DNA of 64,000 bases from an uncultured Lachnospiraceae bacterium (GTDB lineage Bacteria > Bacillota > Clostridia > Lachnospirales > Lachnospiraceae), in contig CAZNEZ010000006.1 in the NCBI GenBank assembly GCA_964572475.1, positions 6,389 to 70,388 on the forward strand, in the 5' to 3' direction. The notes under the pieces were generated by a model, which did no database searches, was not told the origin of the DNA, and saw only the letters and a program-made list of their open reading frames with translations. Each line of letters begins with the position of its first letter. Positions within the stretch are counted from its first letter, which is position 1. Below are positions 5,858-63,097 of the stretch, in pieces. The translations under genes and the position numbers were made by a program.

Positions 5858-6307
5858 ATGGAAGTTATTTTACTACAGGATGTTAAACCATTAGGGAAAA
5901 AAGGTGATAAAGTCAAAGTTAATGAAGGATATGGCAGAAATTATATAATTCCTAAAAAGTTAGGAATTGAAGCTACAACTAAGAACATAAATGACCTTAA
6001 GTTACAAAAAGCCAATGAAGAGAGGATTGCATTGCAAAGACTTGAAGAAGCTAAGGACTTTGCTAAAAAAATAGAAGAAAAACCAGTTGTATTGCAGCTT
6101 AAACTTGGTGAAGGCGGTAAGATATTTGGCTCTGTTTCAACTAAAGAGATTGCAAAAGCAGCGAACGACCAGCTTGGATATGATATTGATAAAAAGAAGA
6201 TGGTATTAGACGAACCTATTAAAACAGTTGGTACACATATAATTCAGGTTAAGATTCATAAGGAAGTAACAGCAAAGTTGACAGTTAAAGTTATAGGACA
6301 AGAATAG
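5858..6307 (+). CDS. rplI: 50S ribosomal protein L9
   Basis: 149 aa. N-terminus [36 protein letters not shown] is typical of L9. SD AGGAGG upstream. Lies between gdpP and dnaB. Confidence 0.95.
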
Positions 6308-15096: not shown

Positions 15097-15219
15097 AAAT
15101 AAGCGTCATGGCATGAATAAGATTGTCGTGGCGCTTATATGTATATTGAAAGAATTGTAGTACATAATCCGATTTGTTTGGCATAATATATAATGAATAT
15201 CTCTATATAAAGGTGCACA

Positions 15220-15945
15220 ATGATTAAAAATAAAATAGGAGAGATTATTAAGTTTACTACAGGAAGTAAAAGAAGAATTCTAGAGTTTGTAATGGGGATT
15301 TTGATGTTATCAGTGATATATGCATGTGCAATGCAGGCTAAAGATATTGCTACTATGAATGAGGAAAAAATACCCAAGATAGTGGTTATAGATGCTGGTC
15401 ATGGTGGGAATGATCCTGGTAAAGTTGGGATTAATGGTGCATTGGAAAAAGACATAAATCTTCAAATATCATTAAAAGTAAAAGATATACTGGAAAAACA
15501 AGATATTAGTGTTGTACTGACAAGGGAAGGCGATGAAGGGTTATATGATGAAAGTGATTCTAACAAAAAAATAGCAGATATGGTTAAAAGATGTGATATT
15601 ATAAATGGATCAGGAGCAGTAATAGCAGTTAGTATACATCAAAATAGTTATCATTCTGAAGGGGTTTCAGGTGCACAGGTATTTTATCATTCAAGTTCAA
15701 CGGAGGCAAAAAAACTGGCAGAAGGTATTCAATTAAGCCTAAAGGATAATGTTGATGAAGGAAATCAAAGACTGGCAAAAAGTAATAGTAGCTATTATTT
15801 ATTAATTCATTCACAATGTCCTATGGTTATTGTAGAATGCGGGTTTTTATCGAATTCTTCAGAGGCAGATATGCTGACTACAGATGAATATCAGAATAAA
15901 TTAGCTTACGCCATCAGTATGGGAATCATTTCATATGTAAATTAA
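15220..15945 (+). CDS. N-acetylmuramoyl-L-alanine amidase (Amidase_3), CwlD-like
   Basis: N-terminal TM helix, VVIDAGHGGNDPGKVG, SIHQNS, ECGFLSNSSEA. Its ~240-aa size and position next to the GH18 gene fit a CwlD-type cortex amidase. Confidence 0.8.
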   Translation: MIKNKIGEIIKFTTGSKRRILEFVMGILMLSVIYACAMQAKDIATMNEEKIPKIVVIDAGHGGNDPGKVGINGALEKDINLQISLKVKDILEKQDISVVLTREGDEGLYDESDSNKKIADMVKRCDIINGSGAVIAVSIHQNSYHSEGVSGAQVFYHSSSTEAKKLAEGIQLSLKDNVDEGNQRLAKSNSSYYLLIHSQCPMVIVECGFLSNSSEADMLTTDEYQNKLAYAISMGIISYVN

Positions 15946-37547: not shown

Positions 37548-38222
37548 ATGTCATTAATAGAATTAAAAGAAATAAGTAAGATATATTTAAAGGGTAAGAA
37601 TAACTCAACAAGAGCTCTTGATGGTGTTAATTTGTCCATAGATAAGGGCGAGTTTATAGCTGTTGTAGGTAAGTCTGGGTCTGGTAAATCTACACTGCTT
37701 CACATTTTAGGATTAGCTGATACATATACTACAGGGAATTATATATTAGATGGAAAGTCTCTGGACAAAGTAGGCAGCGGCAAGTTAGCAAAGATTAGAA
37801 ATGATAAAATAGGATTTGTTCTTCAGGATTTTGCATTAATTAATCAGATGACAGTATTTGATAATATTGCAACACCATTATATATAAATGGAGTATCAGA
37901 AAAAAAGATTAAAGCGCAAGTCTTAGAAGTAGCATCGGAACTTGGAATAAACGATATATTGAATAAAAAGGCTAATCAGATATCTGGAGGACAGTGCCAA
38001 AGAGTGGCAATAGCACGAGCTATAATCAATAAACCAGAGATAATTCTTGCAGATGAGCCAACCGGAGCACTTGATAGTGGGACAGCATTTGAAGTAGTGG
38101 ATATATTAAAAAAGATAAATGCTAATGGAACAACCGTCATAGTAGTAACACACGATATGGATGTAGCAAACAGATGTAATAAGATAATAACCATCAAAGA
38201 TGGTAAGATAGAAGAATCATAA
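37548..38222 (+). CDS. ABC transporter ATP-binding protein (MacB/LolD/FtsE-like)
   Basis: Walker A GKSGSGKST, Q-loop VLQDF, signature ISGGQCQRVAIARA, Walker B ILADEPTGALD, H-loop VTHD. ATG 37548 with SD GGAGA. Confidence 0.9.
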   Translation: MSLIELKEISKIYLKGKNNSTRALDGVNLSIDKGEFIAVVGKSGSGKSTLLHILGLADTYTTGNYILDGKSLDKVGSGKLAKIRNDKIGFVLQDFALINQMTVFDNIATPLYINGVSEKKIKAQVLEVASELGINDILNKKANQISGGQCQRVAIARAIINKPEIILADEPTGALDSGTAFEVVDILKKINANGTTVIVVTHDMDVANRCNKIITIKDGKIEES

Positions 38223-46892: not shown

Positions 46893-46903
46893 AAATCACG
46901 AAA

Positions 46904-46969
46904 CAACATAGAACATTTAAGAAGAATGCTTCGCATTCTTCCAAGCACTTGCGCAGGCAAGTGCTTTTT
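46904..46969 (+). repeat. twin-hairpin intergenic element, copy 1
   Basis: CAACATAGAACATTTAA + GAAGAATGC-TTC-GCATTCTTC + CC + AAGCACTTGC-GCAG-GCAAGTGCTT + T-run. Confidence 0.9.
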
Positions 46970-46990
46970 AGATAATAGGAAATCATGCAG

Positions 46991-47057
46991 CAACATAGAA
47001 CATTTAAGAAGAATGCTTCGCATTCTTCCAAGCACTTGCGCAGGCAAGTGCTTTTTT
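46991..47057 (+). repeat. twin-hairpin intergenic element, copy 2 (tandem, 87-nt period)
   Basis: Identical core to copy 1, followed by ATAGGAAATTACGCAG (47058-47073). Confidence 0.9.
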
Positions 47058-54768: not shown

Positions 54769-56061
54769 ATGGAGAGATACATTATCAAAGGCGGCGCCCC
54801 TCTTTCAGGAGAGGTAAGCATTAGTGGTGCAAAAAATGCAGCACTTGCCATACTAGCAGCTTCAATTATGGCTGATGAAACAGTAACTATTGAGAATTTA
54901 CCGGACGTTAAGGATGTTAACGTACTTATTCAGGCTATAGAGGAGATTGGAGCACAGGTTAACAGAGTTGATAGACACTGTGTTAAGATTAATGGAAGTA
55001 CTATCAGATCAACAACAGCTGATGGAGAATTTATAAAGAAGATACGCGCATCATATTATCTTTTAGGAGCGCTTTTGGGCAAGTTTAAAAAAGCTGAAGT
55101 TACATTACCAGGAGGCTGCAATATTGGAAGCAGACCAATTGATCAGCATATAAAGGGATTTAAAGCTCTTGGAGCAAGCGTATGCATAGAACATGGCATG
55201 ATTATGACAGAAGCTAAGGAACTTAGTGGAAATCATATTTATTTTGATGTTGTTTCTGTTGGAGCAACAATTAACGTAATGCTTGCAGCTACATTGGCTG
55301 ATGGTAATACAACAATAGAGAACGCAGCAAAAGAACCTCATGTAGTAGATGTTGCCAATATGCTTAATAGTATGGGAGCCAACATAAAAGGTGCAGGAAC
55401 TGACGTTATTAGAATTGCTGGAGTTGAGAAGTTCCATGGATGTGAATATTCTGTTATTCCGGATCAAATTGAAGCAGGAACATTTATGTTTGTAGCAGCA
55501 GCAACCAAGGGTAATATTTTAGTTAAGAATGTAATACCCAAGCATCTTGAAGCCATAACATCAAAGCTTCTTGAGATGGGATGTACTATAGAAGAATATG
55601 ATGATGCTTTAAGAGTTATTGGAGCAGAAACAACAAAAAGTACCCATGTAAAAACACTTCCTTATCCAGGATTTCCTACAGATATGCAACCACAGATTAC
55701 AGTAGCATTAGCATTATCATCAGGAATGAGTGTTGTAACAGAGAGCATTTTTGAAAATAGATTTAAATATGTTGATGAGCTTGTAAGTATGGGTGCTAAT
55801 ATAAAAGTAGAAGGTAATAGCGCAATAGTAGAAGGTGTAAAAAAGTTTACAGGAGCGCAGGTTAGTGCGCTTGATCTTAGAGCTGGAGCAGCACTTGTGA
55901 TTGCAGGACTTGTGGCAGACGGATATACAATTATTGAAGATATAGAGTATATTCAAAGAGGTTATGAGAAGTTTGAAGATAAGCTCACTCCACTTGGTGC
56001 AAAGATAGAGATTGTATCTGATGAAAGAGATATTCAAAAGTTTAAACTTAAAGTAGGCTGA
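54769..56061 (+). CDS. murA: UDP-N-acetylglucosamine 1-carboxyvinyltransferase
   Basis: [15 protein letters not shown], active-site loop [15 protein letters not shown], 430 aa. Confidence 0.95.
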
Positions 56062-56126
56062 TTGAAGCATTAATTCAAAATATAAAAACTGATATATAAA
56101 TAGTTTAAAATACCAAAATATTCTAC

Positions 56127-56155
56127 TTGACATATTGTCTGTCAAGATATATTAT
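56127..56155 (+). promoter_or_regulatory. sigma-A type promoter of the SAM riboswitch-metK unit
   Basis: TTGACA (56127-56132), 17 nt spacer, TATTAT (56150-56155). The spacer is spanned by the inverted repeat CTTGACA/TGTCAAG. Confidence 0.5.
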
Positions 56156-56204
56156 ATCACGTATAAAAGTTCATATTAGTGAAAGATTTATCTTTTACGT
56201 TTTT

Positions 56205-56345
56205 CTCTTATTCAGAGTGGTGGAGATACAAGGATCTGTGAAGCCCGGCAACCCCATATGGAAGGTGCCAACCTGAGCGAGTAATCGAGCAATAAGAGGA
56301 TTTGATTACCTTGATATCGAGTCCGCATTTGTGTGGACTTTTTTT
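56205..56345 (+). promoter_or_regulatory. SAM-I (S-box) riboswitch with terminator
   Basis: P1 CTCTTATT / AATAAGAG. Core AGAGTGGTGGAGATACAAGGATCTGTGAAGCCCGGCAACC...GGTGCCAACCTGAGC matches the S-box consensus. Terminator AGTCCGCA-TTTG-TGTGGACT followed by T7 (56320-56345). Upstream of metK. Confidence 0.88.
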
Positions 56346-56366
56346 ACTTTATAGGAAGCTACGCAG

Positions 56367-56433
56367 CAACATAGAACATTTAAGAAGAATACGAAGTATT
56401 CTTCCAAGTGTTCACGCTGGTGAACACTTTTTT
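56367..56433 (+). repeat. twin-hairpin intergenic element, copy 3 (inside the metK leader)
   Basis: CAACATAGAACATTTAA + GAAGAATAC-GAA-GTATTCTTC + CA + AAGTGTTCAC-GCTG-GTGAACACTT + T6. Flanked by a perfect 29-nt direct repeat (56340-56368 and 56428-56456). Confidence 0.9.
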
Positions 56434-56500
56434 ACTTTATAGGAAGCTACGCAGCAGCGTAATGTCACATATTTGTGATAAAACAGAAATGGAGGAAACA

Positions 56501-57688
56501 ATGGAAAAATTATTATTTACATCAGAATCAGTTACAGAAGGACATCCAGATAAAATGTGTGATGCTATTTCAGATGCAGTGCTTGATGCGCTTATGGAGC
56601 AGGATCCAATGAGCCGTGTTGCATGCGAGACTTGTACAACAACAGGTTTAGTTATGGTTATGGGAGAGATTACATCAAAAGCTAATATTAATATTCCAGA
56701 GATAGTAAGAAATACAGTAGCAGAGATTGGCTATACCAAGGCAGAATATGGATTTGATGCAAAAACTTGTGCAGTTATGGTTACACTTGATGAGCAGTCA
56801 GCAGATATTGCAATGGGAGTTGACAAGGCACTTGAGGCTAAAGAGAGCACAATGACAGATACAGAGCTTGATACTATTGGCGCTGGAGATCAGGGAATGA
56901 TGTTTGGATTTGCTTCAAATGAAACAGATGAATACATGCCATATCCTATAGCTCTTGCTCATAAGCTTGCTTTACAGCTTACAAAAGTTAGAAAAGATGG
57001 AACATTAAGATACTTAAGACCAGATGGTAAGACACAGGTAACAGTAGAATATGATGAAGCAGGTAAGCCAATTCACCTTAATGCAGTTGTATTATCAACA
57101 CAGCATGATGAAGATGTTACACAGGAGCAGATTCATAAAGACATTAAAAAGTATGTATTTGACCCAATTCTTCCTAAAGAGTTAGTTGATGATGATACTA
57201 ATTTCTTTATAAATCCAACAGGAAGATTTGTAGTTGGTGGACCACATGGAGACAGTGGACTTACAGGAAGAAAGATTATCGTTGATACTTATGGTGGATA
57301 TGCAAGACATGGCGGTGGAGCTTTTTCAGGTAAGGATTGCACAAAGGTTGATCGTTCAGCAGCTTATGCGGCAAGATATGTTGCTAAGAATATTGTTGCT
57401 GCTGGGTTAGCTGACAAATGTGAAATTCAGCTTTCATATGCTATCGGAGTTGCACATCCAACTTCAGTTATGGTTGATACATTTGGAACAGGCAAATTAT
57501 CAGATGATAAGGTTGTTGAGATTATTAGAGAGAACTTTGACTTAAGACCAGCTGGAATTATTAAGATGCTTGACCTCAGAAGACCAATATATAAACAAAC
57601 ATCTGCCTATGGACATTTTGGAAGAAATGATTTAAACTTACCATGGGAACAATTAAACAAAGTTGAAGCATTAAAAAAATATTTATAG
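56501..57688 (+). CDS. metK: S-adenosylmethionine synthetase
   Basis: [43 protein letters not shown] 56501 with SD GGAGGA. The listed 56408 start reads through the repeat element and is rejected. Confidence 0.95.
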
Positions 57689-62974: not shown

Positions 62975-63029
62975 TTGTAAAAGGTTAAATATTTTTTAGA
63001 GAATAGTTTATGTAATGAAGAATGCGTAG

Positions 63030-63097
63030 CAACATAGAACATTTAAGAAGAATGCTCCGCATTCTTCCAAGCGCTTGTGCCGACAAGCGCTTTTTTT
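63030..63097 (+). repeat. twin-hairpin intergenic element, copy 4
   Basis: CAACATAGAACATTTAA + GAAGAATGC-TCC-GCATTCTTC + CC + AAGCGCTTGT-GCCG-ACAAGCGCTT + T7. Confidence 0.9.

Follow-up and report, generated by a model that had tools for sequence, protein, structure and literature searches.

A dispersed terminator-type repeat lies between the SAM-I riboswitch and metK in an uncultured Lachnospiraceae genome

The insert in the metK leader of an uncultured Lachnospiraceae bacterium is a copy of a selfish or domesticated repeat of terminator type rather than a device specific to metK. The insert is very probably an array of a dispersed, head-to-tail family that settles 3' of terminators composed of a hairpin and a T-run, and it would place two terminators in series ahead of metK. 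No name exists for the family: Rfam has no entry that matches it, and its motifs had no match in the literature searched. Throughout, the window denotes the whole 64,000-nt stretch of DNA that was analysed, which belongs to a 2.3 Mb draft genome of 106 contigs (95% complete).

Results

The metK leader carries one complete repeat unit and the start of a second

All features of the metK leader lie on the plus strand. A promoter scan of 55950-56600 returned a single promoter-like site 5' of metK, TTGACA-17-TATTAT at 56127-56155 (11 of 12 matches). Downstream of it is the SAM-I (S-box) riboswitch aptamer at 56205-56298 (RF00162, 68 bits, gathering score 44.4), which the Rfam search identified as the single SAM riboswitch in the genome and the only Rfam family in the window. 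The native S-box terminator occupies 56319-56346, with a hairpin at 56319-56340 followed by a T-run (terminator scan; predicted fold of -11.9 kcal/mol), and relatives have a homologous expression platform (GATTTGATTAyC...TCGAGTCCGC). The first repeat unit begins directly behind it with a conserved single-stranded 'leader' (ACTTTATAGGAAGCTACGCAGCAACATAGAACATTTAA) at 56346-56383, as delimited by an alignment of 45 family units. Folding and the same alignment define hairpin 1 (GAAGAATAC-GAA-GTATTCTTC) at 56384-56404, with 9 bp and a GAA loop. Hairpin 2 (AAGTGTTCAC-GCTG-GTGAACACTT) and its T-run, at 56406-56433, have the shape of an intrinsic terminator, a structure also supported by covariation; the repeat finder and the terminator scan place its 10-bp arms at 56406-56415 and 56420-56429, ahead of the T-run, and at a predicted -14.0 kcal/mol it is more stable than the S-box terminator.

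A 3'-truncated second unit follows at 56434-56462, consisting of the first 29 nt of the leader without hairpins, and was recognized from the repeat finder and from partial terminal units elsewhere. The metK array therefore amounts to one complete 88-nt unit plus 29 nt of the next (1.33 units, head-to-tail), a number of complete units that short-read assembly could have reduced by collapsing copies. Between the array and the gene, 56463-56500 is presumably a remnant of the native 5'UTR, judging from its sequence and from the spacing in relatives, and contains a small hairpin and the ribosome-binding site GGAGG (56491-56495). The metK gene itself (56501-57688) translates into a full MetK (SAM synthetase) and is present in single copy in the genome. 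In an independent Logan assembly, the junction between riboswitch and element is base-for-base identical, on a contig that stops inside hairpin 1; a second Logan contig ends within metK. The sequencing runs SRR33579945 and SRR8925797 contain this species. When the whole leader was folded, the S-box terminator and the two element hairpins stayed separate structures.

The direct repeat at metK is family sequence

The preliminary description had reported a perfect 29-nt direct repeat between the SAM-I terminator and the metK ATG at 56501, and on rereading the sequence we found all of its coordinates to be correct. Sequence and repeat finder agree that TTTTTTACTTTATAGGAAGCTACGCAGCA is present identically at 56340-56368 and 56428-56456. 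The repeat finder gives the direct repeat as 56340-56373 and 56428-56461, with a spacing of 88, 29 identical nucleotides and 2 mismatches over 34 nt, and its 23-mer core has exactly two occurrences in the window, where 100 shuffles predict none. The second copy of the 29-mer corresponds to the truncated second unit together with the T-run that precedes it.

This perfect repeat at a spacing of 88 nt had suggested a unique and recent 88-nt insertion or duplication at metK, bracketed by a 29-nt target duplication, a reading to which we now give practically no credence. Instead of bracketing a unique insertion, the 29-mer is the family-conserved first third of the next unit, as it is at many loci, and it occurs as family sequence at dozens of them. 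Since it is family sequence and not locus sequence, it is no target-site duplication. In single-unit copies, too, target-site duplication was rejected, as their 5' and 3' junctions have nothing in common beyond the T-run. Nor does the perfect match point to a recent event, as had been proposed. The nearest paralogues of the metK unit, on contigs C26 and C77, match it at no more than 91% and 89% identity, respectively, while units within other arrays range from 100% identity (C3:78536 and C30:16831) down to 78-81% (C7:34797 and C30:27849), and mean unit identity between arrays is 76%. Given this wide range within and between arrays, a perfect 29-mer does not date the insertion. Beyond the 29-mer, the first unit continues ...GCAACATAGAAC and the stub continues ...GCAGCGTAA, which are two different family variants.

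That an 88-nt unit was inserted at metK nevertheless stands. The comparison of metK leaders that the preliminary description had proposed gave element-free leaders in 14 same-family genomes and 20 metagenome contigs, all of which keep the S-box and its terminator. The distance from T-run to ATG in these relatives is 20-100 nt, and it is 22 nt in the closest of them, whose MetK is 85% identical; no MetK relatives above 90% identity were found outside this genome. As the element is missing from the metK leaders of relatives, the insertion is lineage-specific. What did not hold is that it is local or unique, since the family forms 83 arrays across the genome.

The repeat family is dispersed in head-to-tail arrays

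A BLAST search of 56340-56460 against its own genome returned 54 matches, and iterated nhmmer profile searches recovered 63 and then 105 units or fragments, which merge into the 83 arrays and total 7.6 kb. The profile search located two further plus-strand occurrences in the window, an array at 46893-47057 (contig C6:53281-53445) and a copy at 63014-63096 (contig C6:69402-69484). Because 21 contig ends carry the repeat, it breaks short-read assembly. Arrays contain one to three units, strictly head-to-tail and with an 88-nt period. About a third of them end in a partial next unit (23 of 71 scored by script, a count that includes arrays cut inside a unit), and by eye we identified next-unit stubs of 12-34 nt in approximately 16 arrays that finish with a complete T-run. 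Some copies depart from this plan: at C8:31704-31764 and C56:10722-10782, 60-nt variants lack hairpin 1 and have the leader fused directly to hairpin 2 and its T-run, and at C3:3784-3971 a long native hairpin (GATGCCGCG...CTTGGA // TCCAAG...GCGGCATC, then T7) holds a two-unit array in its loop.

Each unit follows the order of a conserved leader of about 40 nt, hairpin 1, hairpin 2 and a T-run, with the consensus TT-ATATAATAGGAAATTACGCAGCAGCGTGAAACATTTAA / GAAGAATGC-GAA-GCATTCTTC / CAA / GCGCTTGT-GCCG-ACAAGCGC / TTTTTT. Covariation was assessed in an alignment of 45 near-complete units, where 98.4% of cells in both hairpins are standard pairs, compared with 40-53% for slid pairing controls. Hairpin 2 shows changes on both sides at 7 of its 10 pairs, and its covariation score was reached by none of 500 shuffles. 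Hairpin 1 is mostly invariant in sequence: 99% of its cells are paired, a single pair covaries, and there is a C:G insertion that is itself paired. The stem variants of both hairpins combine in many ways, and nearly all units in this genome keep a G+C-rich stem of 8-10 bp followed by T5-7. G-T wobbles outnumber A-C wobbles 14 to 5, a weak hint of selection on the sense-strand RNA or on that DNA strand; the bias is weak, so selection may act on DNA hairpins instead of RNA. No terminal inverted repeats were found between the unit ends, which start ..ATAGGAAA and finish with the hairpin and TTTTTT.

Arrays often abut terminator-like hairpins and are also found in the leaders of attenuated genes

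Under strict automatic criteria, 24 of 47 5'-complete arrays lie directly behind a terminator-like hairpin and T-run, compared with 8.4% of control intergenic T-runs; judged by eye, the proportion of arrays abutting such a structure is nearer two thirds. Of 52 arrays, 13 lie between convergent genes, an enrichment over the 8.5% that such spacers make up of all spacers, and only 1 lies between divergent genes. In spacers between tandem genes, 26 arrays are co-oriented with the genes and 12 opposed, a moderate bias (p=0.03).

The terminators of attenuators receive the element as other terminators do. The genome has nine T-box leaders and one SAM riboswitch, and the element is present in three of these ten. 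Behind the pheS T-box (C23:5708-5931) lies an intact unit (5948-6037), and in the trpE leader (T-box region, contig C42) the unit is truncated ahead of hairpin 2. Two units whose T-runs read TTTGTT are found in the metG leader (contig C4), and units also lie directly upstream of radA and dnaX. Partial-ended arrays are found more often than others at a short distance upstream of a co-oriented gene (13 of 23 versus 14 of 46), a trend that is not significant (p=0.066); stub-ended arrays at such positions would fit selection that trims terminators in leaders.

Other sequences accompany some of these copies. A TwoAYGGAY RNA (RF01731, 122.7 bits) is located on the minus strand at C19:163-330, just upstream of a repeat copy, and a sequence near-identical to the one upstream of that copy precedes the truncated trpE-leader copy at C42 ~15120-15460. 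The order in the trp leader would then be T-box, TwoAYGGAY-like stretch, repeat stub and trpE. Outside the window, the region C4:36518-37662 contains, directly upstream of dnaX, an open reading frame of 322 aa resembling Abi (abortive-infection-type) proteins, which is bracketed by repeat fragments at C4:36539-36597 and 37549-37613. The junction between hairpin 2 and the next unit at dnaX reads TTGCGC-17-TATAAT, a possible promoter 35 nt before the ribosome-binding site.

A wider superfamily is present in other Lachnospiraceae genera

Sequence-level searches did not reach beyond this genome. Exact and degenerate pattern scans gave no matches in species genomes, JGI metagenomes or viral contigs, and blastn with the repeat gave none in plasmids. 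BLAST against 40 related genomes, 24 of them of the same family, produced nothing significant, only three short matches at chance level. No Rfam family matched the element at its gathering score, the best weak score being 25 bits against 141.

Relatives were found by a covariance model alone, which we built from the 45-unit alignment. In 150 family genomes, this model gave full-length matches in two other genera, in one of which the repeat is present in 12 of 19 species. One species of that genus, with the genome G174, holds at least 123 full-length copies, many of them in tandem with an 89-nt period, an expansion far larger than that in the genome of the window. Copies from other genera have in common the leader motif ATAGGAAATTrCG...GTAAAnCATT and hairpin 1 (GAGAATGC-GAA-GCATTCTC), and their hairpin 2 has an unrelated stem, a GCyG loop and a T-run. 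They too are often behind terminator-like hairpins and include partial terminal units. At one site where G174 was compared with G173, the latter lacks both units and also the preceding "native" hairpin, which leaves the insertion boundaries ambiguous.

A subfamily in the genome G100 (loci L091-L108) has a period of about 92 nt, the leader ATATCATATTCTCAGAAGCGAAAGAAGTAAAACATTTAAG, a hairpin 1 of AAAGAATTGC-GCA-GCAATTCTTT and a hairpin 2 of TCGCAGGAT-GCyG-ATCCTGCGA without a T-run; the 4-nt junctions between its units are locus-specific. Given this subfamily without T-run, termination is not universal in the superfamily.

Hairpin 2 probably acts as a leaky terminator at metK

We took as an intrinsic (Rho-independent) terminator a G+C-containing stem of at least 5 bp with a loop of 3-8 nt and five or more T among the 8 nt that follow. 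Hairpin 2 and T6 at metK, with 10 pairs, 4 of them G-C, and a loop of 4, form such a structure, in agreement with the earlier suggestion that a 10-bp terminator of canonical shape stands between riboswitch and gene. From this it had been argued that the element is leaky, that it is conditionally unfolded as a second regulatory layer on SAM synthesis, or that metK has another promoter. Leakiness is what survives. The metK gene is essential in bacteria where tested, and here it is single-copy and has no other visible promoter; hairpin 2 and T6 must therefore be leaky. We infer that all metK transcripts pass this structure, so that termination there is incomplete, and that part of them would end at it. 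Under S-box feedback, less MetK gives less SAM and hence more read-through at the first terminator, and this negative feedback of the riboswitch could partly offset a lower maximal metK output.

The additional promoter was not found, as 56346-56500 contains no promoter-like site. A related idea is that the element is a terminator-promoter cassette, in which the junction of hairpin 2, T-run and next unit would restart metK transcription independently of the riboswitch. Some junctions, such as those ahead of dnaX and radA, do read TTGTGC/TTGCGC-17-TATAAT, which fits such a cassette. However, of 79 junctions no more than 8 pass standard promoter criteria, conservation at the -10 positions is among the lowest in the unit, and at metK the junction (…GTGAACACTTTTTTACTTTATAGG) lacks a -10 hexamer in which A2 and T6 are present, which makes this extremely unlikely.

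The proposal of a second regulatory layer is not supported, because the same element sits at about 80 unrelated loci. In its general form, a protein or RNA acting in trans would bind the leader or hairpin 1 and control hairpin 2, giving metK and other loci an extra input. The conservation between genera of the roughly 40-nt leader and of the hairpin 1 sequence, next to a hairpin 2 stem that varies freely, is consistent with a bound factor, as is the presence of several copies within 5' leaders. Against this, the loci are functionally incoherent, with about a quarter between convergent genes and 12 copies antisense to flanking genes; copies vary in phase and truncation as selfish repeats do; and a search for a conserved alternative (antiterminator) pairing found none. 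We consider a conditional terminator very unlikely.

It is also unlikely that the hairpins act purely as DNA, being recognized by a copying machinery while RNA polymerase reads through them almost fully, with the insert near-neutral for metK. The G100 subfamily without T-run would fit this, the cross-genus conservation of leader and hairpin 1 suggests a recognition module, and intact sense copies lie immediately ahead of pheS and metK, which are essential, and of radA as well. The canonical terminator shape kept by nearly all units here argues for a role in RNA instead, as does the excess of G-T over A-C wobbles (14:5), and both the shared orientation with the gene upstream and the excess at convergent gene ends fit use, or tolerance, of the repeat as a terminator.

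Origin and spread of the family

As we read the metK insert, namely as part of a dispersed family with terminator-shaped units, the family settles immediately 3' of hairpin and T-run terminators, and the S-box attenuator of metK is one such site. Each unit itself closes with a hairpin and T-run and so recreates a site of the preferred kind, in keeping with arrays that grow. The metK leader would thus have a SAM-controlled terminator first and a constitutive one second.

More tentatively, the repeat could be a terminator-homing mobile element with an undescribed mechanism. A copying machinery would then recognize the conserved leader and hairpin 1 as a module, and hairpin 2 with its T-run would regenerate the target, so that arrays lengthen head-to-tail. 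5' leaders such as those of metK, pheS and trpE would gain a constitutive attenuation step, which hosts may relieve by deleting the hairpin part and leaving 'solo-leader' stubs such as the 29-mer.

We looked for a gene that could mobilize the repeat. IS605-like tnpA/tnpB was rejected: the ends of both genomic copies are unrelated to the element, and there is no profile match in or beside them. A RAYT-like gene (C92:2-451) was likewise rejected, as its contig carries no element. RAYT homologues are present in 32 of the 150 family genomes, none of which has a match to the repeat model, and G100 has the repeat and no homologue at E<=1e-10. A reverse transcriptase was sought as RVT_1 in this 95% complete genome, with no match. 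In the region C92:2-1246, this RAYT-like Y1 transposase gene is cut by the contig end and lies beside a small toxin-antitoxin-like pair (94 and 104 aa); the same contig has a 79-nt internal repeat (557-633 and 1329-1407) unrelated to the twin-hairpin family.

Discussion

What looked like a second layer of control at metK is a generic repeat and no purpose-built regulator. The family reaches at least 80 arrays in this genome and 123 or more copies in a second Lachnospiraceae species from the gut, and its units place canonical terminators inside the riboswitch and T-box leaders of essential genes. These leader insertions offer a natural experiment on the degree of constitutive attenuation that feedback-controlled leaders tolerate. 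They also call for caution in predicting operons, terminators and riboswitch expression platforms in these genomes.

Several classes of small mobile repeat resemble this family in part. It differs from classical MITEs in that its units have neither terminal inverted repeats nor a locus-specific target-site duplication. In this it is like the IS200/IS605-derived PATEs, for which hairpins are also key and which insert in a single orientation, 3' of a short target; here that target would be the T-run. Unlike PATEs, however, the unit has both hairpins in its 3' half rather than one at each end, and the ends of the resident IS605-like elements share nothing with it.

REP and BIME elements, with their RAYT transposases, are known from Enterobacteria and Pseudomonas. 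Like the repeat described here, they are extragenic hairpin repeats at gene 3' ends, mosaic and clustered, which combine stem variants modularly and can terminate or stabilize mRNA. BIMEs alternate in orientation, whereas the arrays here are strictly head-to-tail, and the RAYT-like gene of this genome is not flanked by the repeat and does not co-occur with it across genomes.

The closest described analogue is SPRITE of S. pneumoniae (2011, PMC3049150), which has one 18-bp duplex, a long U-rich tract and AAAA/TTTT termini (PMC3049150). Both are small (about 100 nt), AT-rich, non-coding interspersed repeats that finish in a stem and U-rich tract, and both are enriched between convergent genes, near gene 3' ends (here 13 of 52 against 8.5%). 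Both also lack a matching IS element or a demonstrable target duplication and are lineage-restricted, with bursts. The comparison is one of description, no relationship in sequence being expected, and it also brings out differences: the present element has a 40-nt leader, two hairpins of about 10 bp and no 5' A-run, which sets it outside the structural definition of SPRITE, and it forms head-to-tail arrays of exact 88-nt period that abut pre-existing terminators. For the position at metK, a parallel may be seen in the BOX repeat, which is found inside T-box leaders of S. pneumoniae and co-transcribed with them (PMC3049150). BOX belongs to a separate repeat family with another architecture, but it provides a precedent for an interspersed repeat lodged in a riboswitch-type leader.
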